Shown here in pieces: positions 4,594-64,000 of a stretch of 64,000 nucleotides of DNA (position 1 is the first letter of the stretch; each line of letters begins with the position of its first letter). The notes under the pieces were generated by a model, which was not told the DNA's origin, searched no databases, and was given only the letters and a program-made list of their open reading frames with translations. The stretch spans positions 2,270 through 66,269 of the forward strand of contig JAGORQ010000003.1 of the NCBI GenBank assembly GCA_018062705.1, given 5' to 3'. Position numbers and translations under genes: made by a program. The stretch is from Candidatus Shapirobacteria bacterium (lineage in GTDB: Bacteria > Patescibacteriota > Microgenomatia > UBA12405).

Positions 4594-4643
4594 TTTTGTC
4601 TGTCATTCCCGCGAAAGCGGGAATCTATATAAAAATTAACAAT

Positions 4644-8201: not shown

Positions 8202-8963
8202 ATGAGCAAAACCTCACAAGAAAACAAAAAGAAAAAGCTTGTTGTGGAAGATCAAGTAATTGATCACAAGGCTTCAGAATCCGTCGAAGAAACTGGAGTA
8301 AATCCCGAAATCGTTAATGAGGAGACCGTTTCCGCCGAAGGCGGATCCGCCTCTGGCGGAAAAAGAACTGCCAAAGTTCGCGGCAAAAAATATCAAACCG
8401 CCAAGAAAAAGGTTGACGTAGCCAAATTTTACCCCATCAAAGACGCTGCCAAATTGGTCAAAGAAACTTCTTTCTCCAAATTTGAAGGCAAAATCGAAGC
8501 TCACATCACTGTGACCGAAGAGGGTAACTTAGGTGAAATTGTCTTCCCCCACCTCGAAACAGCCAGCAAAAAAATCGTCATCTTAAACGATGCTATTTTG
8601 GCTGAAATCAAAGACGGTAAAGTCGATTTTGATATTCTTATCGCCACTCCCGCCACCATGCCCAAGCTTTTACCTTTTGCCAAGGTTCTTGGTCCCAAAG
8701 GTTTAATGCCCAATCCCAAGAGTGGCACCTTAACCGACAAACCCGAAGAAGCTGTCAAAAAGCTGTCAGTAGCCAAAACCATGATCAAAACCGAGAAAAA
8801 AGCTCCGGTTGTTCATATCATTGTTGGAAAAGTTTCCCAACCGGTCGAAGAGCTCAGTGCCAATGTGGCTGAACTCATCAAGGTTGTCAAACCAATTCGT
8901 ATCAAAAAATTGGCTCTTTGTGCCACCATGGGCCCATCAGTCAAAGTCGAGGTCCTAAAATAA
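8202..8963 (+). CDS. rplA: 50S ribosomal protein L1 (with about 65-aa Lys/Glu-rich N-terminal extension)
   Basis: Conserved L1 core from about residue 70 (FEGKIEAHITV...KVLGPKGLMPNPKSGT). Confidence 0.9.
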   Translation: MSKTSQENKKKKLVVEDQVIDHKASESVEETGVNPEIVNEETVSAEGGSASGGKRTAKVRGKKYQTAKKKVDVAKFYPIKDAAKLVKETSFSKFEGKIEAHITVTEEGNLGEIVFPHLETASKKIVILNDAILAEIKDGKVDFDILIATPATMPKLLPFAKVLGPKGLMPNPKSGTLTDKPEEAVKKLSVAKTMIKTEKKAPVVHIIVGKVSQPVEELSANVAELIKVVKPIRIKKLALCATMGPSVKVEVLK

Positions 8964-8966
8964 CAA

Positions 8967-8990
8967 GTCATTCCTGCGAAGGCAGGAATC
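8967..8990. repeat. GC hairpin element GTCATTCCTGCGAAGGCAGGAATC (family B copy)
   Basis: Near-identical copies at 4602-4625 and 45557-45580, variant at 1056-1075. Confidence 0.7.
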
Positions 8991-24445: not shown

Positions 24446-24727
24446 TCAAATTGAACCAAGTTCTTTTTTTACAATATCTGCCAGATAGACTTTTATCAAA
24501 GATTGGTATGGCACATCTTTCTTGTTGGCTATCATCTTTAAATCAGAAATAAGCGAAGTAGGAAACCTAATCAGCACAGACTTTGTCGAAAACTTTAGGT
24601 TTGGCAAAGATGGGTTTACTATTACCTTCTTTAAATCAACAAAATCAAGAAAACTATTTTTAGCCCAGAATTCCCTTTCTTGATCCTCATCTTTAAATAT
24701 TGGTATTTTTTTTATTTTATTTTTCAT
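24446..24727 (-). CDS. BrnA-family antitoxin (second copy)
   Basis: Paralog of 17884-18159. Confidence 0.75.
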   Translation of the reverse strand: MKNKIKKIPIFKDEDQEREFWAKNSFLDFVDLKKVIVNPSLPNLKFSTKSVLIRFPTSLISDLKMIANKKDVPYQSLIKVYLADIVKKELGSI

Positions 24728-25013
24728 ATTTTTTATAAAACATTTTTTCTCTTTTATTTTGATCTCTAGCCGAAATTATTCTTATTTTATTGTGCCTAAT
24801 AGTATAGATCACAACCAACAGTCGGCCCTTGGATGTTTTTCCATAAACTCCTTCCCGAATCTCACTTTTTGAATGTTTGTCATCTGCAAACATCAACAAT
24901 GGAACTATTTTAAAAACTTCCTCTGCCTCATCCCAAGTTACCCCATGAGATAAGTTGTTTTTACTTTGATTTCCCAAATCCCACTCAAAGCCTTCGGTTT
25001 TGGTTAGCTCCAT
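24717..25013 (-). CDS. BrnT-family toxin (second copy)
   Basis: FEWDLGN...AEEVF...IRIISARD; paralog of 18146-18439. Confidence 0.75.
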   Translation of the reverse strand: MELTKTEGFEWDLGNQSKNNLSHGVTWDEAEEVFKIVPLLMFADDKHSKSEIREGVYGKTSKGRLLVVIYTIRHNKIRIISARDQNKREKMFYKKYEK

Positions 25014-25068
25014 ATTTTTAAAGTGTATACAATGATAGTATACAAATTATTATTTGTCAATACTAATT

Positions 25069-26079
25069 TTACGAACTTGAAGAACTTTTTAACTTGATGA
25101 ACTTATTTATATTCTCCACCGTAGTCCGAATAATTCTCTCAATCGCCTCTTTAGTATTAAACGCATTGTGGGGTGTAAACACCACATCGTCTCGATCGCG
25201 TAGCAAATGGTAGCTTAACACCTCCTGCAAATCATCTTTGGATGGCTCTCGGCTAGTCACCATCGCCACATTTTCTAGCTTATCTTCTTCTTCAGTCACA
25301 TCTAGTCCTGCCCCCCACAAAATTTTATTATTCAGCGCCCAAATAATTGCCTCCGTCTCCACTACCGCCCCACGTGAGGTATTAATCAGGATTGATCCCG
25401 GCTTCATCAATTTAATATTTTTTCGATTAATCAAATGGTGTGTCTCTTTGCAGGCAGGAACATGAATAGTTAGCACATCCGATTTTTTTAGACACTCTTC
25501 CAAACCAACATAATCAAACTTCAACTTCTTCGCCAACGCCTTGTCATGATGCTGTTCCACACCTAGCACTTTCATCCCAAAAGCCCTCGCCATCTTCACC
25601 ACATTTTGACCAATTCTACCCACTCCTACTACCCCCAAAGTCCGTCCAACTAGATCAATTCCGGTAAGCCCTTCCGGGCTAAACTCACCATTTTCCACCG
25701 ACTGATGTGCCGGCACAATTCTTTTGGCCACCGAGAGCATTAATGCCATTGTGTATTCCGCCACTGTTGATGAGCCATAAGCTGGTACGTTGGCCACCAC
25801 AATTTTTCGCCGATTACATTCTTTACAATCAACATTATCAATTCCGGTTGACCTCGCCGCCACCATTTTCAAGTTTGGCAACTTATCCAAAGTTTTTTTA
25901 TCCGCCATCGAGTAAATAAACACTGACACCACTTCGTATCTTTTTGCCAATTCAATATTATCTTGCAACTCACCTTCAAAAATTCCTACCCCTTCAGCCT
26001 CAAGCTCTACAATCTCTCTTTCTATAATCGGTCTTTCCCAACTTTTCACCCCAAAAAACCCTACTTTAAGATTGTTCAT
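25069..26079 (-). CDS. D-isomer-specific 2-hydroxyacid dehydrogenase
   Basis: NAD-binding GVVGVGRIGQNV motif and catalytic-domain layout. Confidence 0.75.
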   Translation of the reverse strand: MNNLKVGFFGVKSWERPIIEREIVELEAEGVGIFEGELQDNIELAKRYEVVSVFIYSMADKKTLDKLPNLKMVAARSTGIDNVDCKECNRRKIVVANVPAYGSSTVAEYTMALMLSVAKRIVPAHQSVENGEFSPEGLTGIDLVGRTLGVVGVGRIGQNVVKMARAFGMKVLGVEQHHDKALAKKLKFDYVGLEECLKKSDVLTIHVPACKETHHLINRKNIKLMKPGSILINTSRGAVVETEAIIWALNNKILWGAGLDVTEEEDKLENVAMVTSREPSKDDLQEVLSYHLLRDRDDVVFTPHNAFNTKEAIERIIRTTVENINKFIKLKSSSSS

Positions 26080-26102
26080 ACTTCATTCTAGCGCAAATAA
26101 CA

Positions 26103-26690
26103 CTATATTTCTAAACACACCTGTGGCTTGAAATGAGAATTTGGATATTCCGACACTCTCAAGCACATCGAATTTTTTAAGATACAATAGGCCACATATT
26201 GAACATCAACATATGTTTTATACCTTCCAGCATTTCCCGAAATAGATAATAGACAGTAAGCCAGCCACTCACCCAGCTCATTTTCGTCGAGCAACCGCTC
26301 AGTTCCAATAAAGTGATAAGAATTATCAGTCTCTACAAAAACTCCCCTACCAAATTTTGGCACCATAAGTTTTTTCCATACCGTAGATATTTTTTTTAAA
26401 TTTTTTTCTGATTTTTTTATAGAAAAATCCATCATCGGAATATGCCTTATGTTCCTGTTAATTACCACTTTTGATTCAATGCCAATATTTCTATTTTTCT
26501 GCAAATGAGAAATAATAAAATCAATTTTGCCCAGCTTATCTACACCAATATGGTGAATAACATCTCCAATCGCTGGTAATGTTCCTGGTGGCATTCCCGG
26601 ATATACGTACTCTCTGAGATCTACACTTTCAACGTCTTTATTATTAAGTACTATTTTTTTTAAGATATCCAAAGTGCTACTACCTAGCAT
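26103..26690 (-). CDS. hypothetical protein
   Basis: ORF only. Confidence 0.4.
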   Translation of the reverse strand: MLGSSTLDILKKIVLNNKDVESVDLREYVYPGMPPGTLPAIGDVIHHIGVDKLGKIDFIISHLQKNRNIGIESKVVINRNIRHIPMMDFSIKKSEKNLKKISTVWKKLMVPKFGRGVFVETDNSYHFIGTERLLDENELGEWLAYCLLSISGNAGRYKTYVDVQYVAYCILKNSMCLRVSEYPNSHFKPQVCLEI

Positions 26691-26702
26691 GGCACTATTT
26701 TA

Positions 26703-26998
26703 CACCAAACATCTTTTTTCCTGTCTTTACGGATTACGTATTACGGTTTACGGATTACGTCTTTTTGACACGTTGACCCACTAGTATCCGACATGCTTTA
26801 CCACCAAACATCTTTTTTCCTTTTTTTCGGTCATTAGTAATTAGTCATTAGTAATTAGTAATTTTGTTCCATTGACCCACAAGTATCCGACATGCTTTGT
26901 CCCCAAACATCTTTTTTCCTGTCTTTTCCTCATTTGTCATTAGACATTAGTCATTTGTCATTTTGTTCCATTGACCCACTAGTATCCCTTATGCTTTA
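26703..26998. repeat. three tandem about 99-bp repeats in divergent intergenic region; conserved flanks with variable heptamer-repeat cores
   Basis: Units 26703-26800, 26801-26899, 26900-26998 share CAAACATCTTTTTTCCT and TTGACCCACTAGTATCCGACATGCTTT. Confidence 0.8.
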
Positions 26999-27043
26999 AT
27001 GAATAAGAGTTAATCATTAGAAAGATACAAAAGGAGATACCCT

Positions 27044-27301
27044 ATGAACGATCAAACAGTCCCACAAGATAAAGTAGTGGAACAAAAAGCCTCTCCCAAA
27101 AAGATCAATGGTGTCAGTATCGACAACCTCCCTGATCTTTTAACTGTGGCTGAAGTGGCCGACCTTCTCCGTGTGTCCAAGCTCACCATCAAACGCTGGG
27201 GTAAGCGAGGTAAACTCCCCGCCATCCGCATCAATGCTCGTGGTGACCGACGCTACCGCAAAGAAGCTGTTCTCTGGCTACTCGGTATCCAAAGCGAATA
27301 A
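27044..27301 (+). CDS. excisionase/MerR-family HTH DNA-binding protein
   Basis: LLTVAEVADLLRVSKLTIKRWGKRGKLPAIRI resembles excisionase-family HTH. Confidence 0.6.
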   Translation: MNDQTVPQDKVVEQKASPKKINGVSIDNLPDLLTVAEVADLLRVSKLTIKRWGKRGKLPAIRINARGDRRYRKEAVLWLLGIQSE

Positions 27302-37431: not shown

Positions 37432-37486
37432 AAATTAGTAATTAGTAATTAGTAATTGGTAATTAGTAATTAGTAATTAGTAATTA
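37432..37486. repeat. (TAATTAG)n heptanucleotide tandem array, about 8 units
   Basis: aaattagtaattagtaattagtaattggtaattagtaattagtaattagtaatt. Confidence 0.9.
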
Positions 37487-37507
37487 GTAATTAAAGTATA
37501 ATCAAGT

Positions 37508-42444: not shown

Positions 42445-42706
42445 AATTAATAATAGTCACCCATTTACAATTAAGTCAAGAACAAGACAAAACTAGTCTA
42501 TTTTTCAAGCAAAAGTATAAATAAAATCTATTAGCAGGAGTTAACTATTAATGCTAACACTTTTCGACACAATGGAATCAAATAACTACATATAACAAAC
42601 TTGTATATCAAATAGTCCCCATCGCACTTTAATTATTCTTCCTATATAATCATCTCAACTCTCAAAAAGTTCCCGACATTTGAGAATTTAACAAACTAAT
42701 TGTTTA

Positions 42707-42899
42707 CCGGCGGACAAGTCCCCTTCTTACCAAAACGGGCGTTGCCCGCCGTAGTCCCGCAATCGCGGGACGTAGGCGGGGACCCGCCTGCAAAAGCTGT
42801 CGCTTTAGCAACTGCGAGCAGGTTGGCGCAATTTCAGCCAGAGGCCGATCGGCCGGCCGAGGCTAGCGCAATAGAAATATGCCTAAATAGTCGTATATT
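42707..42899 (+). ncRNA. GC-rich structured element (candidate ncRNA / long tRNA leader) immediately 5' of tRNA-Pro
   Basis: Local GC far above window average; nested palindromes CCCGCAATCGCGGG, GGCGGGGACCCGCC, long imperfect hairpin CCGCC-GTAG-TCCCGC..GCGGGA-CGTAG-GCGGG. Confidence 0.35.
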
Positions 42900-42976
42900 C
42901 GGGGATTGGCGCAATTGGCTAGCGCGCACGGTTCGGGATCGTGAGGTTGCTGGTTCGAATCCAGTATCCCCGACCA
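42900..42976 (+). tRNA. tRNA-Pro (anticodon CGG), CCA encoded
   Basis: Manual cloverleaf: acceptor CGGGGAT/ATCCCCG, D-stem GCGC/GCGC, anticodon loop TTCGGGA, T-arm GCTGG-TTCGAAT-CCAGT. Confidence 0.85.
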
Positions 42977-43100
42977 GTCGGATACTGGATGAGAAGTTTA
43001 TCCTGAGCGAAGTCGAAGGAAATCCAGTATCCCCGACCAGTCGGATACTGGATGAGAAGTTTATCCTGAGCGAAGTCGAAGGAAATCCAGTATCCCCGAC
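42961..43100 (+). repeat. 2.2 tandem copies of a 63-bp unit beginning with the tRNA-Pro 3' end (CCAGTATCCCCGACCA...)
   Basis: Units 42961-43023, 43024-43086, partial 43087-43100 identical. Confidence 0.9.
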
Positions 43101-43254
43101 AAAAATAATTAATAATTAACAATTAATAATTACTAATTAAGAACAACTGTCCATTCTCTGATGATTGAGCAATCCAATCATCACAAGTTTTTTGTATTGA
43201 TAGTTTTCAACTACTAATTATTAATTCGTAATTAGTAATTAGTAGTTAATGTTC

Positions 43255-43326
43255 GTCCCTATAGTTCAATGGATAGAACGGAGGTTTCCTAAACCTTAAA
43301 TGGCAGTTCGATTCTGCCTGGGGATA
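43255..43326 (+). tRNA. tRNA-Arg (anticodon CCT), CCA not encoded
   Basis: Manual cloverleaf: acceptor GTCCCTA/TGGGGAT, D-stem GTTC/GAAC, anticodon loop TTCCTAA, T-arm GGCAG-TTCGATT-CTGCC. Confidence 0.8.
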
Positions 43327-43480
43327 CATTTACAGAATCTAATTGCCCCAGGTACGACCTGTTTCGCGAGTTCACGAGCGAAGTTCCTGGTGGGGATACT
43401 TTTTACAGTTCGACTTGTTTCGACGAACCATTTCATTTTTTTTGTGAGTCGAAGTTCTGCCTGAGGATACTTTTTTAACA
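43314..43480 (+). repeat. three spaced (about 71 bp) copies of the tRNA-Arg 3' end (CTGCCTGGGGATAC / TCCTGGTGGGGATAC / CTGCCTGAGGATAC + T-run)
   Basis: Degenerate direct repeats of T-arm/acceptor 3' half downstream of the tRNA. Confidence 0.7.
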
Positions 43481-43978
43481 AACCCTCTAGTTTCACGGAC
43501 AAGTTTTTCTCCTCAATTTCCTTTTACCGCATAATCTATAGATGAATTGTCTGATTAACCGCACATATCTGCACAATTTCCGCAACATTTTTTCCTTATC
43601 TAATAAAAAAATTATAAGTCAATTAAGATATCATTAACCGCATTTAAAAGAAAATTTTCTTATACCTGTATATATCTTTTATACTACTAATATGGTCAGT
43701 ATAACCGTACACATGACATTATGACAGTTATTTCCTAGTTACATTTTTTCACACTCGATTATTTTTCCGCAATTTTTATATGCCTTCACCCACTATCTTT
43801 ATGAAGTGAATCAATTAGAATCAATGTATTACATCAAGCTACGACGAATTATTAGACATTTTTAATGTTTAATATCAACTTGTCCCACGCGGTTAATTAA
43901 ACATTTTATGCGTATTTAGACATAAAATATTCTACTAGAAAATGTTTATCACTCACACAGCTTAATTGCTAAAACTCC

Positions 43979-45289: not shown

Positions 45290-47878
45290 CTATCTAACTA
45301 CAAAGTTGACCATCCTGCCTGGCACATAAATTTCCTTAACCACCTCTTTTCCCTCCAACCACTGCGTCATCTTCGGCAACTCCTTTGCCAGTTTTATTAT
45401 TTCTTCTTGGCTTTTAACTCGTAACTCGTCACTGTTAACTGATAACTGTTCTCTGACTTTTCCATTCACCGCCACCATAATGGTAACTGACTCCTCCGCC
45501 AGATACTTCTCATCCGCCACCGGCCACTCTTGATCATGAATCGATGAAAAAATCTCGTCATTCCCGCGAAAGCGGGAATCCATTCTTTGCCACATTTCTT
45601 CCGCCGTGTACGGTGCCATTGGTGCCATTAATTTCAAAAAAGTCTCTAAATCATTTCTCGAAACCATTTCTTTGTTATCTTCAAAATCATTTAATAATTT
45701 CATCAATTTTGCCACTACGGTATTGTATCCAAAACTTGCCATATCTTCGGTAATACTTTTTATGGCTTTATTAATGATTATCAGTAGTTCTTTATTACTG
45801 TCAGCAGACTTATTATTTAATTGCTCATTAGTAATTCGTAATTCGTAATTCGTAATTGATTTTTCCACTCTATCCAAAAATCGTTTCACCCCCATGAGAG
45901 TCTTCTCATTCCACGCCATCGTTCCATCAAATGGTCCCATAAACATCAAATACATCCTCACTACATCGACCCCGTACTTATCCGCTACCACCTCTGGCAC
46001 CACCACGTTCCCCTTCGACTTACTCATCCGATTATTGTCTGGTCCCAAAATTACCCCATGGGAAATTCTTTTAAAATATGGCTCGGGTAACTCTTTGGGT
46101 ACTGCGCCAATGTCGTGCAGAAACTGGTAAATAAACCTCGAATACAAAAGATGCAGTGTGTTATGTTCATCGCCACCTATGTAGACATCCACCGGACCCC
46201 AATATTTAATCATCTTTTGGGATGCCAGCTCTTTATTGTTGTGCGGATCCATATATCTTAAAAAGTACCAGTCACTCCCCGCCCAATTTGGCATCGTATC
46301 AGTTTCCCGCACTGCATCACCGTCACAAACTGGACATTTGCAATTCACAAACTCTGGAATTTTTGACAATGGTGACTTGCCATCATCCGTCGGCTCGTAA
46401 GCCTCCACCTCTGGCAACACAATCGGCAACTGTTCTTCCGGCACCGGAATCCACCCCACATTTTTCAATAAATTATTTTTTTCGTCTTCATTTTGGATTT
46501 TAGAATTTAGAATTTGGGATTTTTGATTTTCTGCACATTTATTACAGAAAATCATGGGTATCGGCTCACCCCAATAATGCTGTCTAGAAAAAATCCAATC
46601 TCTTAAGTGATATGACACCACTCTCTTCCCCCAACCCTTTTCTTCAAAATAATCCATCGTCTTCTGCATCGCCTTCGTAAAGTCCATTCCATTTAAAAAA
46701 TCAGAATTCACCATTACACCCTTATCACCCGAATGAACTTGAAAACATTCTTTTTCAACATCCCTCTCTTCTCCATCAACTCCATCTACCACTTTAATAA
46801 TTGGGATTCCAAACTTTTTGGCAAAATCCCAATCTCTCTGGTCATGACCTGGACAACCTTGAACTGCGCCAGTCCCAAAAGTCGCCAACACAAAATCAGT
46901 TATCCAAATTGGAATCTCTTTACCATCAACATGATTTATTGCATAAAGCCCAGAAAACACTCCTGTCTTTTCTTTTCCTAATTCAGTTCTTTCAATCTCG
47001 CTCTTTCGCCTTGCTACTGATATATACTTTTTTATTTCTTCAATCTGTTTCTGATCAACACCAAACTTCCCCGACACGATATCCTGCACAAACTTGTGTT
47101 CTGGTGCCACTACCAAAAAAGTCGCCCCAAAATTTACCGGTGTTGTTGTAAAAATAGCCAGTTTCTCACTCGTGCCCTTAACTTGGAAATCGATATTTAT
47201 CCCCTCTTTTCTCCCAATCCAGTTTATTTGTGCTTGTTTCACTTTCTCAATAAAATCCGTCTTCGCAAGTCCCGACACCAATTTATCTGCATAATCAGTT
47301 ATTTTTACTATCCACTGGCTGATGTTTCTTCTCGATACTTCAGAATGACACCGCTCGCACTTCCCATCGACAACTTCTTCATTGGCCAAACCAATTTTAC
47401 AACTTGGACACCAGTTAATCGGCATCTCCTCTTTGTAGGCCAAACCCTTTTTAAATAATTGAACAAAAATCCACTGTGTCCATTTATAATAGTCTGGGCT
47501 AGTCGTATTTACCTCCCTCTCCCAATCAAACGAAAACGCCAACCGTTTCATCTGACTTCTAAACATATCGGTATTTTCCTTGGTCACTTCTTGCGGTTTC
47601 CGCTTCATCTTTATCGCATAGTTTTCCGTTGGCAAACCAAAGGCATCCCAACCCATCGGAAACATCACCTCATACCCCTGCATTCGCTTAAATCTGGCAT
47701 AGACATCTCCACCAGTAAACGAAAAAGCATGACCTACATGGAGACCCGATCCTGAGGGATAAGGGAACTCATTTAGCACATAAAACTTCCCTTTGCTAGC
47801 TACTCTTTTACTATTTTTTTTGCCCCACTCAGTAATCCATTTTTTCTCGATTTCTAAAAACTTTTTATCTTCGTTCAT
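45290..47878 (-). CDS. leuS: leucine--tRNA ligase
   Basis: HVGHAFSF (HIGH) and KMSKSKGN motifs, editing domain; three in-frame heptamer inserts and one in-frame family-B hairpin (SRFRGNDE). Confidence 0.95.
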   Translation of the reverse strand: MNEDKKFLEIEKKWITEWGKKNSKRVASKGKFYVLNEFPYPSGSGLHVGHAFSFTGGDVYARFKRMQGYEVMFPMGWDAFGLPTENYAIKMKRKPQEVTKENTDMFRSQMKRLAFSFDWEREVNTTSPDYYKWTQWIFVQLFKKGLAYKEEMPINWCPSCKIGLANEEVVDGKCERCHSEVSRRNISQWIVKITDYADKLVSGLAKTDFIEKVKQAQINWIGRKEGINIDFQVKGTSEKLAIFTTTPVNFGATFLVVAPEHKFVQDIVSGKFGVDQKQIEEIKKYISVARRKSEIERTELGKEKTGVFSGLYAINHVDGKEIPIWITDFVLATFGTGAVQGCPGHDQRDWDFAKKFGIPIIKVVDGVDGEERDVEKECFQVHSGDKGVMVNSDFLNGMDFTKAMQKTMDYFEEKGWGKRVVSYHLRDWIFSRQHYWGEPIPMIFCNKCAENQKSQILNSKIQNEDEKNNLLKNVGWIPVPEEQLPIVLPEVEAYEPTDDGKSPLSKIPEFVNCKCPVCDGDAVRETDTMPNWAGSDWYFLRYMDPHNNKELASQKMIKYWGPVDVYIGGDEHNTLHLLYSRFIYQFLHDIGAVPKELPEPYFKRISHGVILGPDNNRMSKSKGNVVVPEVVADKYGVDVVRMYLMFMGPFDGTMAWNEKTLMGVKRFLDRVEKSITNYELRITNEQLNNKSADSNKELLIIINKAIKSITEDMASFGYNTVVAKLMKLLNDFEDNKEMVSRNDLETFLKLMAPMAPYTAEEMWQRMDSRFRGNDEIFSSIHDQEWPVADEKYLAEESVTIMVAVNGKVREQLSVNSDELRVKSQEEIIKLAKELPKMTQWLEGKEVVKEIYVPGRMVNFVVR

Positions 47879-59136: not shown

Positions 59137-59769
59137 TCATAGCATATTTCAATTTTGACTGCTAGTGATTTCTACCAACAAATAACCTAGAACTTTCAAC
59201 CAAAACGATCTAAAAATATATTTTCCGAAACTCCGCCTATTCCAGCACCTTTCTAATGTCTTTCTCTCTGAGCAAAAACTATATCAGTCTCAAATCCCTA
59301 ACCACCAACAAAACCAATCGACTAAATGCTCGAACTTAACTGGAAATATTTATCTTAGTTAAAACACCTAATAAACGGGACAGTATACCATCATTTAATA
59401 TCAAACTATCTTTACCGCACATAACCGCACAAATAATTTACCAACTGTCGTCTTAAAATACTAATTAGACTAGTTAACATGAGATTGATAGTAGACAAAG
59501 TGCTCGTGTAAACTAAAGTGAAAAATAACCGCAATACTTTTCGGTAAAATTAGTAAGCTATGTATACTATCAAACTACAACAACTTCTACCTCTTTGTTC
59601 CTGCTTGACACCATTTTCCTAATAGTAGATAGTTAATTAATATATTAATTAATTCAGATAAACATGTATAAACTATCTAATTTTGAATCTAAAAGATTAT
59701 TACCGCTATTTGAACGATTAACTCCGTTCTTAATTATTACCGCCGCCTTCGCTTGGCTCTGGAACTAAC

Positions 59770-60192
59770 ATGCTTCAATCTTTTCGCACCTGGCTTATTT
59801 CCAAAAAATACACCGAGTCAACTGTCAAAAACTATGTCACCGATATCAATCGCTATCTTGATTTTGTTGGTCCCAGCTCGAATGTTGCCCACATTTTTTT
59901 AGACTCAGTATTATCAAACTATTTGTCGCAAATATCCTTCGATATTAACTACCCCCGCTACTTAGCATCTCTTAACCAGTTTTGCCAATTTGGCATTTCT
60001 CAAAACATCATTTCCCAAAACCCTCTCAAAAAAGTTAGACACCAAATTGAAGCCACCCCTCAAACCGACCTAAAACATCTTTTAACCGAATTTTCCCAAT
60101 ATTTAATTAAACACAAAAGTTCTGATTCAACTATAAAAAACTACATCAATGATGTTAACTTATATATCAATTGGCTAAACTCTGAATCTTAA
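59770..60192 (+). CDS. N-terminal segment of giant envelope protein: two phage-integrase SAM-like (core-binding) domains
   Basis: TVKNYVTDINRYLDF and TIKNYINDVNLYINWL repeats; ends at TAA 60190-60192 but downstream +1 frame continues. Confidence 0.55.
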   Translation: MLQSFRTWLISKKYTESTVKNYVTDINRYLDFVGPSSNVAHIFLDSVLSNYLSQISFDINYPRYLASLNQFCQFGISQNIISQNPLKKVRHQIEATPQTDLKHLLTEFSQYLIKHKSSDSTIKNYINDVNLYINWLNSES

Positions 60193-60193
60193 A

Positions 60194-63100
60194 GCAATAT
60201 TTAACCAGTCTAATTTTGAAAAGTACCTTCGTCTAAAACAGACAGAGGGTCTTTCGCTCTCCAGTCTAAAACGGAAACAATCTTCGCTCACATCGTTTCA
60301 AAAATTTTTAGTCAAAAAAGGCTATCTTGATCAAATTTCTCCACTCCAAGTTGATCTTCACAAAACCCCAACTTTATCCTCTTTGCCCACCATCAATCCT
60401 CAACCCGCCAAACAATCTTTCTTGACTGGCTATATCCTTACTGCTTTAGTAGCTTTAATTTTCACTGGATTAGGTTTCGGACTTTATTATCAAACAATTG
60501 TCCGTTCTACCAAAAATCTGGCATTTTCAACTGCCGCCTCCCCTGTCCGTCCCGGGCGTATTCTTTCGTTTCAGGGTCGACTTACTGATTCGGCTGGTAA
60601 CCCTATCACCAGCTCTACCGGGATTGTCTTCAAATTGTTCAACAATAGTATTGGCGGTACTGAACTTTACAACTCAAATATTGGCAACAGTCAAACCGTC
60701 GTCCCCGACACCAATGGTATTTTTTCTGTCGTCATAGGTTCAAGTCATGGCACTGAAATCCCCTCTACAGTCTTCTCTGAAAATCAAAACGTCTACTTAG
60801 AAATTACTGCTGGTGGTGAGACCATGAACCCTCGCCAGCCTATCGCCACTGTCGGTTACGCTCTCAACTCAGAAACTTTGCAAGGCCTGCCTCCTTCTGC
60901 TAGCGGTTTAAAAAACACAGTGATGGTCATCGACGGCTCTGGTAATCTTAATCTAGGTGAAACAAGCCCTTCAATAATTTCCAATTCTGGCACTCTAGGT
61001 ATTGAGGGTCAGGCCATGCTTCTAAAAACTGGCTCCGGATCAGCCGGCAATATTACCATTGCCCCTGATGCTGGTGGCCAACTCAATCTATCTTTTGGTA
61101 GTACCTCACCCAGTAACGGCGGTTTAATCAACATTACCAACGCCAATTTTGCTGCCGGTAACATTATCAACGCTAGTATCAACAATGACAATCGTGGTTA
61201 CAACTTTGTCAGTTTTAATAACTATGACGTCGGCACTACCCAAACCGCCTCTCGCTTTTCCGTCGACTCATACGGTAATACTTCAGTTGGTGGCACATTG
61301 ACTTTGTCAGGCACTGCAGTCGGGGTGGGCACCTCCGCCTTGTTTATCGATGCCTCCACTGGAGCAGTTTCTCGTCGGGTACTCGGATCTATGGCTTTTG
61401 ACTCTGGTACTTACGATAATTATCAGCGCTGGATTGCCAATGTCGGTACCAGCAACACCACTATTAGTTCCGGCACCACTCTCTCTTATGCTGCTGGCGC
61501 CGGTCTATCAATCTCACTTATAGGCAATACTCTTACTTTCACCAATACTAGTACCGGCACCACCTACTCCTTTACCAACGGACTAACAAATAATTCCGGA
61601 ATTGTCGGACTCGGCGGCACTTTTACTCAAAACTCTCAAATTGGTACCAGTAATTTTTCTTTGGCATTCCTCGGTTTGGGAAACAGTCTAGGTCTAGCCC
61701 AAAGCTCGTCAGGAAACGTTGGCATCGGCACTTCCAGCCCCTCCCAAAAATTAGACATCAACGGCTCAGTCAGCATTGGTGGATCACTCGCCATCGGCTC
61801 AACCTTTCTCGTAACTAATCTCAATGCCGATTTATTAGACGGACTAAACTCCTCTTCCTTCCTTTACACCGCTGGTACTGGTATCAGTTTGTCTTCCGGT
61901 AATGTCTTCAGTAACATCGGCGTCACCTCCATTCTTGGCACTGCTAATCAAATCACTGCTTCTAATCCTACAGGTGCAGTTACCCTATCTCTACCACAAA
62001 ACATCGATACTGCTGCCAATGTTCAGTTTGGATCACTCTATCTATCTGCATCAGGTATTGGTCTTTCTACTGCTAGCAATGTATCAGTTGGTGGCACGCT
62101 TATCCTTGCCGGTACACCAGTCGGCACCGGAACCACCATTCTTTATATTAATTCAAACAATGAAGTCACTCGAGGTACCTTTGGTCCTTACGAATCACCA
62201 CTAACTTTTCAAAACGGCCTCACCAGATCTACCAACACTATTTCAATTGGAGGAACTTTAACTCAACATACTCAAATTGGCACAAGTAGTTTCGGATTAT
62301 CGTTTCTCGGTTTGGGCAACAGCATCGGTTTATCCCAATCAAGTTCTGGTTGGGTCGGAATCGGCAATTCTTCACCCAACTATCAACTTGATGTTACTGG
62401 TGATGCTGGTATCGGTGGCAACTTAAATGTAGGTGGCACACTAACTCTAGCTGGCACACCAGTTGGAACTGGTACAACCATTCTCTATCTAAATGCCAGC
62501 AATCAAGTTACCAAAGGTGTCTTTGGTCCTTACGACAATTACCAACGATGGGTATTGTCAAATTCCGGCACCCAAGCAAACATTACTACTGGTGTTACCT
62601 TAGCAATTGGGTCAGGTGGAGGTATCAATACTTCTCTGGTTGGCACTTCACTTACTGTAATTAATACAGGTGTTACCAACATCTTTGGCACTGCCAATCA
62701 GATAACTGCTTCCGGTTCAACTGGGGCCATCACTCTTTCTTTACCCCAAAATATTGACACCGCCGCCTCAGTCCAATTTAGTTCCTTATCTCTATCATCA
62801 ATTGGTACGGGTTTGTCTACCGCCGGCGGTCTCCGCGTCGGTACTTCACTTAGTACAGCTGGTAACTTAACAATTGGCGGTACCCTAAATCTTTCCAACA
62901 CCAATACAGTTGTCTCAACCGGGACTACTGCACTATTAATCGACACTAGTGGCAATATTAGCAAAAGAATGCTTGGCTCCATGGCCTTTGATTCTGGCAC
63001 TTATGACAACTATAACAATTGGGGACTCCGAAATAATAGTGGTGCTACTACACCAGTCACCTCTGGGTTAAGTGTTAACTTTGTTAATGGTGTTGGTATC

Positions 63101-64000
63101 TCAATTTCTCAAATTGGTACCTCTATTTCCTTTGCCAACATTGGTGTCACCTCCATTCTTGGTACAGCTAATCAAATAACCGCTAGTAATCCTACCGGTG
63201 CAGTTACTCTCTCTCTACCTCAAAACATTGATACTGCTGCCAATGTTCAGTTTGGCTCCTTAGCTTTATCATCTGCTGGTATCGGGCTGTCTACTGCTGG
63301 TGCGGTTAGAATTGGAACTTCATTGACGGTTGGCTCCAATTTATCAGTCGGTGGCAGTGTTACCTTATCCTCCCTACCGGTTGGTGTTGGCACCTCAATT
63401 GTTTACATTAACTCTTCAGGAGTCTTGACCCAAGGATTTTTTAACACTGGAGTCGGCACAACTTATGCATTCCAAAACGGCCTGAACGATCCCGGAACTC
63501 ACATCATCGGACTCGGTGGCACCTTAACTCAACACTCCCAGATTGGTACTAGCAACTTCACTCTCTCATTTTTAGGTTTAGGCAATACACTTGGTCTGTC
63601 AATTGGTCCAAGTGGTTTTGTCGGTATTGGCACCTCTTCACCTACCCAAAAACTCGATGTGAATGGCAACGTTGATATTGGAGGTACACTCTTTCTCACC
63701 GCCACCCCTGTTGGTACCGGCACTTCAGCCTTATTTATCGATGCTTCAACTGGAACTGTCTCTCGTCGAGTTCTGGGTACCATGGCCTTTGATTCTGGCA
63801 CTTATGACAATTACAACAATTGGGGTCTCCGAAGTAATAGTGGTGCTACTACACCAGTCACCTCTGGGTTAAGTGTTAACTTTGTTAATGGTGTTGGTAT
63901 CTCAATTTCTCAAATTGGTACCTCTATTTCCTTTGCCAACATTGGTGTCACCTCCATTCTTGGCACTGCTAATCAAATCACTGCTTCTAATCCTACAGGT
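60194..64000 (+). CDS. giant repetitive surface protein (continues beyond window): third SAM-like domain, TM helix, then Gly/Thr/Ser-rich repeats; likely continuous with 59770-60192 via +1 frame break
   Basis: Frame open from stop at 60176-60178 to window end with no stop (more than 1260 codons); encodes FEKYLRLKQTEGLSLSSLKRKQSSLTSFQKFLVKKGYL before any start codon; TM GYILTALVALIFTGLGFGLYY. Confidence 0.6.
63007..63215. repeat. about 200-bp near-identical intragenic repeat (second copy 63803-64000; related copy 61905-62025)
   Basis: Direct comparison shows more than 90 percent identity over about 200 bp. Confidence 0.8.

Follow-up and report, generated by a model that had tools for sequence, protein, structure and literature searches.

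The sequence analyzed here (hereafter, the window) is a 64-kb stretch of the genome of Candidatus Shapirobacteria, which belongs to the Candidate Phyla Radiation (CPR). It contains neighboring genes for tRNA-Pro(CGG) and tRNA-Arg(CCT), each of which is followed by repeats that, as recognized in the initial annotation of the locus, are copies of tRNA 3' ends starting in the T-loop (Table 1); the repeat units are referred to as modules. Sequence comparison suggests that these modules are a much shorter variant of the unexplained RtT trailer repeats of the tyrT type, which extend to a further phylum and to tRNAs other than that for Tyr, and makes a link to small GIY-YIG nucleases plausible.

Behind tRNA-Pro, Tandem Repeats Finder (TRF) delineates an array at 42958-43100 with a period of 63 bp, 2.3 copies, 100% identity and a score of 286, in agreement with the exact 63-bp tandem units of the initial annotation. 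The unit starts inside the T-loop of tRNA-Pro and consists of AATCCAGTATCCCCGAC(CA) followed by a 44-nt spacer. The 17-mer AATCCAGTATCCCCGAC is found exactly three times (42958, 43021 and 43084), and the first two copies extend with CA, so that the tRNA tail in common comprises 19 nt and not the 16 nt originally assigned to it. The third copy (43084-43100) lacks CA and is followed by an A-rich flank, as in the relatives described below. Elsewhere in the 64 kb, there is no match to AATCCAGTATCCCCGAC even with three mismatches (chance expectation 0.08).

Each module can be described as a stem-loop, the 3' strand of which reproduces the tRNA sequence that starts in mid-T-loop (A58) and continues with the T-stem and the 3' strand of the acceptor. 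The spacer starts with GTCGGATACTGGAT, a near-complement of the tRNA tail, and the pairing within the unit that had been suggested before is borne out, with GGATACTGGAT being a perfect 11-nt complement of ATCCAGTATCC. For a single Pro unit, the predicted fold is a hairpin of 14 bp that encloses a 4-bp inner stem and leaves the CA end free (-20 kcal/mol, z = -3.1). Given that the Pro modules and the first Arg module contain a matching T-stem strand on the 5' side, they could form an acceptor/T-stem minihelix, which is predicted to enclose an enlarged 'T-loop' bearing a hairpin. The Pro units contain no T-run.

The tRNA-Arg gene is followed by two additional tail copies in degenerate units of about 71 bp, each copy spanning the region from the T-loop to the 3' end (TTCCTGGTGGGGATAC and TTCTGCCTGAGGATAC, at spacings of 72 and 71 nt) and directly followed by a run of five to six T. 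The degeneracy, the spacing and the T-runs are as first described, and the count of three copies given at that time is reached only when the tRNA's own end is included. The first Arg module is a pseudo T-arm of another tRNA-Arg(CCT) allele and not of the adjacent gene: TTCCTGGTGGGGATAC is the genuine 3' end of tRNA-Arg(CCT) in other Shapirobacteria (loci L039 and L092; loci are designated by L numbers throughout) and is also the first additional copy in L029. The Arg modules fold no better than shuffled sequence.

Upstream of tRNA-Pro, we identified a partial copy of the D-arm of this tRNA, interrupted by two hairpins, that had not been noticed before; the D-arm structure with the hairpin pair is better preserved in L087, L092 and L104.

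A promoter-like site precedes tRNA-Pro, in a consensus scan that yields no more sites than are found in shuffled sequence, and the terminator-like hairpin between the two tRNA genes, flanked by inverted blocks of AT-rich heptamer repeats (43104-43144 and 43203-43248), is likely to be the end of the predicted tRNA-Pro transcript. Because the promoter-like site lies upstream and the only terminator-like hairpin lies downstream, the Pro units are placed within the probable tRNA-Pro transcript. The proposal that the repeats form a transcription-termination array fares poorly, considering that this single site is outside the units, that the Pro units are devoid of T-runs and that the Arg modules show no folding above the shuffled background. 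The encoded CCA of tRNA-Pro is peculiar to the window: the gene in the relatives ends with ...CCCCGAC, followed by bases other than CA.

Table 1. Features of the tRNA-Pro/tRNA-Arg region of the window
Feature	Position	Strand	Description
Partial tRNA-Pro D-arm copy	42823-42869	+	TTGGCGCAATT and GGCTAGCGC, interrupted by two GC hairpins, both decayed: TCAGCCAGAGGCCGA (42834-42848) and TCGGCCGGCCGA (42849-42860)
Promoter-like site TAGAAA-16-TATATT	42872-42899	+	Consensus scan; its end is at the first base of tRNA-Pro
tRNA-Pro(CGG)	42900-42976	+	Found by both ARAGORN and Rfam; CCA encoded
Pro module 1	42977-43039	+	GTCGGATACTGGAT, GAGAAGTTTAT, inner hairpin TCC TGAGCGAAGTCGAA GGA, tail copy AATCCAGTATCCCCGACCA (43021-43039)
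Pro module 2	43040-43100	+	Identical to module 1; ends with the third tail copy AATCCAGTATCCCCGAC (43084-43100)
Terminator-like hairpin and T-run	43159-43193	+	Hairpin at 43159-43183; sole such site in a scan of this strand
tRNA-Arg(CCT)	43255-43327	+	Found by both ARAGORN and Rfam; CCA not encoded
Arg module 1	43328-43399	+	CCAGG TACGA (43348-43357), 26-nt hairpin insert in the T-loop (43358-43383), TTCCTGGTGGGGATAC (43384-43399), T5
Arg module 2	43400-43470	+	CAGTTCGA (43406-43413), 41-nt insert (43414-43454), TTCTGCCTGAGGATAC (43455-43470), T6

Recurrence of the modules and comparison with the RtT repeats

When a set in which each species is represented by one genome was scanned for the 17-mer AATCCAGTATCCCCGAC, 98 loci were retrieved, most of them tRNA-Pro genes of CPR. 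About ten of these loci keep the order MreB, PEGA protein, small open reading frame (ORF), tRNA-Pro(CGG), tRNA-Arg(CCT), (M16), leucyl-tRNA synthetase (LeuRS), and the flanking proteins of these syntenic relatives show 38-71% identity to those of the window. A single Pro module is present at the same syntenic position in L029, L087 and the metagenome contig L104, and none at the syntenic locus in L100, L092, L082, L085, L024 and L025; in L100, both tRNAs are identical to those of the window, yet there are no repeats. Within the window, the 47-nt spacer that had been singled out for a search is confined to its two sites. The Pro module itself recurs, with 0, 1 or 2 copies depending on the lineage. 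Two Arg modules, in the same order as in the window, were found in L029 and one each in L104, L099 and L039. A scan of viral contigs for the module yielded only chance matches in coding sequence.

The most distant occurrence is in L109, where a Pro-type module appears twice, in 135-nt units, behind tRNA-Phe(GAA). This contig is probably from a member of Bacteroidota, as judged from the type IX secretion system (T9SS) sorting domain that it encodes. In the L109 modules, the strand is the ACTGG of the Pro type, and the tRNA-Phe in front of them has CCTGG in its T-stem.

The block ACTGGATGAGAA(G/A)TTTAT (18 nt) is invariant in all six of the six modules compared, including those from different phyla. 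The Pro modules of the window and L029 are identical in 53 of 58 positions, with the inner stem showing a compensatory flip from CC..GG to GG..CC, and those of L104 and L087 contain the hairpin TCCGCCnnnGGCGGA where the window has TCC-TGAGCGAAGTCGAA-GGA. This conservation is notable because, at 38-71% protein identity, a neutral scar should be unalignable. From the patchy presence combined with conservation far above the neutral expectation at this divergence, it follows that, to judge by the sequences, the modules are mobile or selected and not passive scars. Of the possibilities listed in the initial annotation, that of a miniature element is partly upheld, given the patchy recurrence of the module in distant genomes and on a different tRNA.

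The tail copies and their breakpoint are not peculiar to this locus. When the last 16 nt of 200 tRNAs in the fetched loci were searched for within 600 nt, allowing at most two mismatches, recurrence was detected downstream for 16 tRNAs, upstream for one and in inverted orientation for none (all out of 200); the sole upstream case is a pair of paralogous tRNA-Leu genes. We further compiled 24 downstream partial copies of tRNAs for Pro, Arg, Gly, His, Ser, Leu, Phe and Tyr from four phyla (CPR, a Treponema, a Bacteroidota-like contig and E. coli). In 23 of these 24, the exact homology begins within the 7-nt T-loop or at its edge, the commonest breakpoint being between GGTTCG and AATCC.

To our knowledge, the RtT repeats (RtT RNA, RF00391) behind the tyrT and tyrV genes of E. 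coli have so far been treated as an enterobacterial curiosity. In E. coli K-12, TRF identifies 3.1 copies of a 178-bp unit behind tyrV. The unit ends with AATCCTTCCCCCACCACCA, which is the tRNA-Tyr tail copied from the same T-loop position as in the window (ggttcg followed by AATCCAGTATCCCCGA in the window and by AATCCTTCCCCCACCA in E. coli); ahead of the tail is GGGGAAGGATGAGAAGCTT..., a complement of the tail followed by the motif GATGAGAAG, as in the window. In the Rfam consensus, GgGaaGG likewise pairs with CCuuCcC and is followed by AUGAGAA, and the annotated rttR RNA starts 8 nt past tyrV and has its end precisely at the CCA that closes the first pseudo-tail.

The window modules and RtT thus share co-oriented tandem units, in about 2-3 copies, directly behind a tRNA gene; an outer stem that consists of a 5' strand, directly followed by GGATGAGAAG(C/T)TT, and the copied T-stem/acceptor strand; and a similar 3' part, GAGCGAAG..CGA.G.A.AATCC. 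When the tRNA-derived parts are removed, the inner sequence of RtT still aligns collinearly with its counterparts in the modules of the window and of L109 (z = 3.3-4.0; scores as good were obtained with 0-12 of 3000 shuffles), starting with ATGAGAAG.TT and ending with GAGCGAAG..CGA.G.A. The differences are in the length of the unit, 63 nt against 178 (130 in the Rfam model), with the middle ~65 nt of RtT missing; in the tRNAs, Pro and Arg against Tyr; in the hosts, CPR against Enterobacteria; and in the tpr-like frame, which in the window has only 5 codons (MRSLS*). We classify the window units as RtT-like and not as members of the family because none of the CPR units obtains a score with the RtT model of Rfam. 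RtT has no known function and varies in copy number and position among strains of Erwinia (PMC7542023).

With regard to the tpr frame, the ORF for the 'protamine-like' product in E. coli K-12 (L146, 1287066-1287236) starts with the ATG of the conserved GGATGAGAAG (MRSF...), and the same ATG opens 5-codon frames in the modules of the window, L029 and L109 (MRSLS*, MRSLW* and MRSLC*).

GIY-YIG nuclease genes at tRNA genes of relatives

In several related loci, the tRNA and its partial copy are separated by a gene. Intact ORFs of 83-96 aa for GIY-YIG nucleases occupy this position in L017, L045, L076, L060 and L120, and in the first three of these, the ORF begins 1-5 nt past the tRNA. The Pfam matches (E about 1e-15 to 1e-16) indicate that the product is a bare GIY-YIG catalytic domain. 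Among the relatives, a GIY-YIG ORF adjoins a tRNA gene in L017, L045, L076, L060, L110-L122 and L124, the last of which has the same upstream architecture as the window, with the ORF intact. What lies between the tRNA and the copy is a GIY-YIG nuclease gene in more than 10 related loci and a recombinase gene in none of them.

Homologues that were picked by protein similarity alone (P0129, P0122, P0139, P0144 and P0128) all belong to one of two tRNA arrangements. The first consists of the tRNA, the ORF, hairpins and a partial 3' copy, and the second of a partial 5' copy, hairpins, the ORF and a complete tRNA, in which case the last codons of the ORF are often encoded by the tRNA. The hairpins at the junctions are 15-bp GC elements of the form TCNNCC-N3-4-GGNNGA and are often paired. 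In tRNA-bearing loci, 16 of the 19 perfect junction hairpins are located within 400 nt of a tRNA, that is, in 15% of the sequence (p = 6e-11). The hairpin inside the Pro modules of L104 and L087 is of this type, and the pair is present in the upstream D-arm copy of the window, L087, L092 and L104. The C-termini of the GIY-YIG homologues show no match to the module. A survey of the literature turned up no account of CPR loci in which a GIY-YIG gene accompanies a partial tRNA copy; a paper on tRNA introns of Patescibacteria covers anticodon-loop group I introns only.

Several further observations concern these genes and hairpins. In L121 (1184-2078), three tandem GIY-YIG ORFs are interleaved with tRNA-Ser genes and partial copies, and in L086 (2107-2600), six copies of a 25-nt tandem repeat unrelated to tRNA separate the GIY-YIG ORF from tRNA-Gly(TCC). 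Within the window itself, the gene for ribosomal protein L1 (ORF 8202-8963) contains a pair of 15-bp hairpins, TCCGCCGAAGGCGGA and TCCGCCTCTGGCGGA, at 8331-8360, in frame (SAEGGSASGG) and in an N-terminal extension; their type matches that of the hairpins beside the GIY-YIG genes and tRNA fragments in relatives. The hairpin pattern TCCGCCnnnGGCGGATCAGCCnnnGGCTGA was also detected in 10 IMG/VR viral contigs, either intergenic or in frame.

A precedent for a nuclease of this family at tRNA genes is SegB, a free-standing homing endonuclease, which is encoded in the tRNA cluster of T4/T6 phages and cuts tRNA genes at RAWTSGAAC (PMC13096335), driving tandem segmental amplification through recombination at short homologies (PMC13096335; PMC2330249). 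RAWTSGAAC is the reverse complement of the T-loop motif GTTCSAWTY. As with SegB, a GIY-YIG gene lies beside tRNA genes in the CPR relatives, where the ORF is found exactly between the tRNA and the partial copy; and the T-loop breakpoints together with the perfect tandem array of the window are consistent with the SegB mode of action (PMC13096335), cleavage being putative in this case. Unlike in the phages, there is no GIY-YIG gene in the window, the amplified units hold no complete gene, and the CPR proteins, whose cleavage is putative as well, are about 85 aa long and comprise the catalytic domain only. SegB is the larger protein.

Another parallel comes from fungal mitochondria (e.g. Allomyces atp6), where free-standing homing-endonuclease genes bring along a replacement for the 3' end of the host gene, and the old end is left as a pseudogene. 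The combination of an intact gene, a nuclease ORF and a displaced partial copy is the same in the CPR loci L017, L045, L076 and L120. The difference is that the target here is a bacterial chromosomal tRNA gene and that the window retains only modules without an ORF.

Other features of the window

In the 901 nt of the tRNA/repeat region, an Rfam search at E <= 10 returned the two tRNAs and nothing else. A known ribozyme or small RNA in the Pro unit, including the hammerhead, was considered and rejected, given that CTGGATGAG differs from the hammerhead core CUGAUGAG. The ORF at 42700-43119 was discarded as a genuine coding sequence: it traverses both the tRNA and the repeat array, and its product is without a Pfam match.

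The intergenic regions contain dozens of 7-bp tandem repeats (AATTAGT, TTCTAGT, AGATTGA...), for example, at 37433-37493, 1282-1313, 43104-43140 and 43215-43248, which resemble the heptamer repeats also known from heterocystous cyanobacteria. A cyanobacterial origin and a homing site of a type V-K CRISPR-transposon, which these repeats led us to suspect, were dropped after the flanking M16 peptidase turned out to be a Shapirobacteria protein.

Boxes of the form T(A/T)(A/T)CCGCA have 12 matches in the window, all on the plus strand, with clusters at 43524-43771 (5 within 250 nt downstream of tRNA-Arg) and at 59412-59533 (3 preceding the ORF at 59770). In L024, L082, L085, L087 and L092, too, tRNA-Arg is followed by boxes of a similar kind, and the cluster is probably a protein-binding array. 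A replication origin at the TWWCCGCA box array past tRNA-Arg was rejected for lack of a switch in GC skew. The skew is between -0.13 and -0.45 in all 2-kb bins of the window (1-64000), regardless of the orientation of the genes and without a switch, which amounts to an unusually strong strand asymmetry.

Additional elements are an AdoCbl-II (cobalamin) riboswitch at 545-623 on the minus strand, with a score above the Rfam gathering threshold, and a palindromic 24-nt element, GTCATTCC(C/T)GCGAA(A/G)GC(G/A)GGAATC, present three times (4602-4625, 8967-8990 and 45557-45580), with one of the three falling within the LeuRS reading frame. The region 24446-27301 encompasses a BrnT/CopG toxin-antitoxin pair, an AEP-like primase (26103-26690), three 99-bp tandem repeats (26699-26998) and an ORF for an HTH_17/MerR protein (27044-27301); by its gene content, it looks like a replication module of the plasmid or phage type, in which no integrase was seen.

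Origin of the modules

Taken together, the evidence moderately favors the explanation that the repeats are pseudo-tRNA 'top-half' modules, predicted to be transcribed as parts of tRNA 3' trailers, that arose via breakage and recombination in the T-loop, followed by unequal crossing-over. As a first step, the T-loop of the tRNA gene would be broken or undergo strand exchange, with recombinational repair duplicating the 3' part of the gene. The cause of the break would most likely be a tRNA-associated GIY-YIG nuclease, by analogy with the phage SegB. Recombination might then move modules between tRNA genes with similar T-arms, which would explain both the foreign Arg allele and the Pro-type strand behind tRNA-Phe in L109. 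Unequal crossing-over, or slippage, between the direct repeats of 17-19 nt could lengthen and shorten the arrays, and the two identical 63-bp units would represent the latest, recent expansion. The Pro modules would be co-transcribed with tRNA-Pro, and, by analogy with RtT, tRNA-processing enzymes may cut them out. Cleavage 5' of GTCGG, that is, between GACCA and GTCGG, is predicted to provide tRNA-Pro with a finished CCA end. This benefit is unlikely to be the reason for the existence of the modules because the CCA-GTCGG junction is unique to the window, and little or no essential function is expected because relatives lack the modules.

The alternative that retains some weight, even if we regard it as rather unlikely, is that the modules are functional RNAs under selection, namely, tRNA-like trailer minihelices that guide RNase P or the processing of the 3' end, a small regulatory RNA of the RtT type or a decoy to which tRNA-binding proteins would attach. 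The invariance of the 18-nt block across genomes with ~55% protein identity and across phyla, the compensatory change in the inner stem, the significant fold of the Pro unit inside the probable tRNA-Pro transcript, and the precedent of rttR, an annotated RNA that ends exactly at a pseudo-CCA, are all as expected under such selection. Hairpins that act at the DNA level, however, also predict compensation within palindromes; the modules are missing from most of the syntenic relatives, including L100 with its identical tRNAs; the CCA-GTCGG junction is found in the window only; the Arg modules lack a significant fold; and the upstream hairpins are visibly decaying. Furthermore, the function of RtT itself is unknown (PMC7542023). 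A selected RNA function and a selfish origin are compatible and not mutually exclusive.

Repeated tRNA 3' ends also bring to mind the attachment (att) sites of integrases, and the initial annotation had raised the possibility of serial excision scars. Under this explanation, the units would be scars, or a mini-cassette mobilized in trans, of a tyrosine or serine recombinase targeting the T-loop, with each unit being the remnant or the miniature of an element. The T-loop is a classical sublocation of integrase crossover sites, the direct repeats do run from the T-loop to the 3' end of the tRNA, the tRNA is intact with a displaced copy downstream as with attL and attR, repeated integration would yield (core-X)n-core arrays, and the first Arg module has the 3' end of a foreign tRNA-Arg allele, as if an element had brought its own tRNA end. 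Nevertheless, we consider this origin improbable and do not retain it. The spacers are only 44-56 nt long, a 63-bp double-stranded circle is implausible, and there is no kb-scale insert; within the 64 kb, there is no distant second att copy of either tRNA end; and no catalytic integrase domain was detected in the ORFs scanned within the window. The more than 10 related loci contain a GIY-YIG nuclease gene, never an integrase, between the tRNA and its copy. The copies are interrupted by hairpins and include partial copies of 5' parts, which integrases that restore the 3' end do not make. The two genes that had been cited in support of att sites do not help: the 'excisionase-like' gene at 27044 encodes the HTH_17/MerR protein next to the AEP-like primase, 16 kb away, and the SAM-like domains from 59770 onward are N-terminal domains only, two of which, of the integrase type, are in the ORF 59770-60192, beyond which a repetitive frame of great length continues past the end of the window (59770-64000).

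Plain local duplication by replication slippage, without any mobile element, nuclease or function, appears highly improbable as the complete explanation. It agrees with the 100% identity of the tandem 63-bp units and with the abundance of short tandem repeats in the window, where slippage evidently is frequent, and accounts for the last duplication. But slippage requires a pre-existing direct repeat, so that the first copy of the tRNA tail remains unexplained, as do the recurrence of the module in distant genomes and on tRNA-Phe and the constant T-loop breakpoint across four phyla. Finally, that the tandem array is an assembly artefact, as the breaks in the contigs from the same sequencing run on both sides of the region might suggest, is barely credible, considering that homologous single modules were independently assembled in four other genomes or metagenomes and that the breaks fall inside the tRNA genes, where isoacceptors share k-mers, and not inside the repeat.

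Several points weigh against an origin by nuclease-induced T-loop breakage and against the kinship with RtT. A tblastn search of the 64 kb with three CPR GIY-YIG proteins found no such gene, and the motif GATGAGAA is present in no fetched locus that bears a GIY-YIG gene; the link between the nuclease and the window modules is architectural, not proven, and comes from the shared architecture and one shared hairpin type. T-loop breakpoints are also produced by tRNA-targeting integrases, and the conservation of the 18-nt block across phyla could equally reflect a selected RNA function. The likeness to RtT comes from the architecture and short motifs: the Rfam RtT model, which recovers the E. coli repeats with 133-138 bits, gives no match in the window at its gathering score of 45 bits, nor on the 901 nt at E <= 10, and, with E <= 10 again allowed, none in L104, in L109 and in eight further loci. 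In addition, the number of 63-bp units is taken from a single assembly. In the one other assembly of the same sample, the contigs break at both tRNAs, with two independent Logan contigs of the run concerned (SRR11088367) ending at 42929 and resuming at 43272.

If the origin by T-loop breakage and recombination is extended beyond the window, the mini-modules, the RtT repeats of E. coli and the CPR insertions with a GIY-YIG gene and twin hairpins might, as a tentative proposal that may well turn out to be wrong, constitute one unrecognized, cross-phylum class of selfish elements. Such elements would settle in tRNA genes in that they break a loop of the gene, usually the T-loop, and rebuild the gene from a partial copy that they carry; modules without an ORF would be non-autonomous forms, similar to miniature inverted-repeat transposable elements (MITEs), and RtT would be a relic or a domesticated member.

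In practical terms, the modules break short-read assemblies at tRNA genes and create spurious ORFs, such as the one at 42700-43119. With respect to biology, the origin and function of the RtT repeats behind tyrT and tyrV of E. coli have not been established, and the 63-nt relatives with the same T-loop breakpoint and GGAUGAGAAG in CPR and in a Bacteroidota-like contig provide a comparative set by which the minimal module is defined. Tiny GIY-YIG genes occur together with the same junction architecture, which points to an origin of these repeats that can be tested, namely, nuclease-induced breaks in the T-loop, as in the case of the phage SegB.

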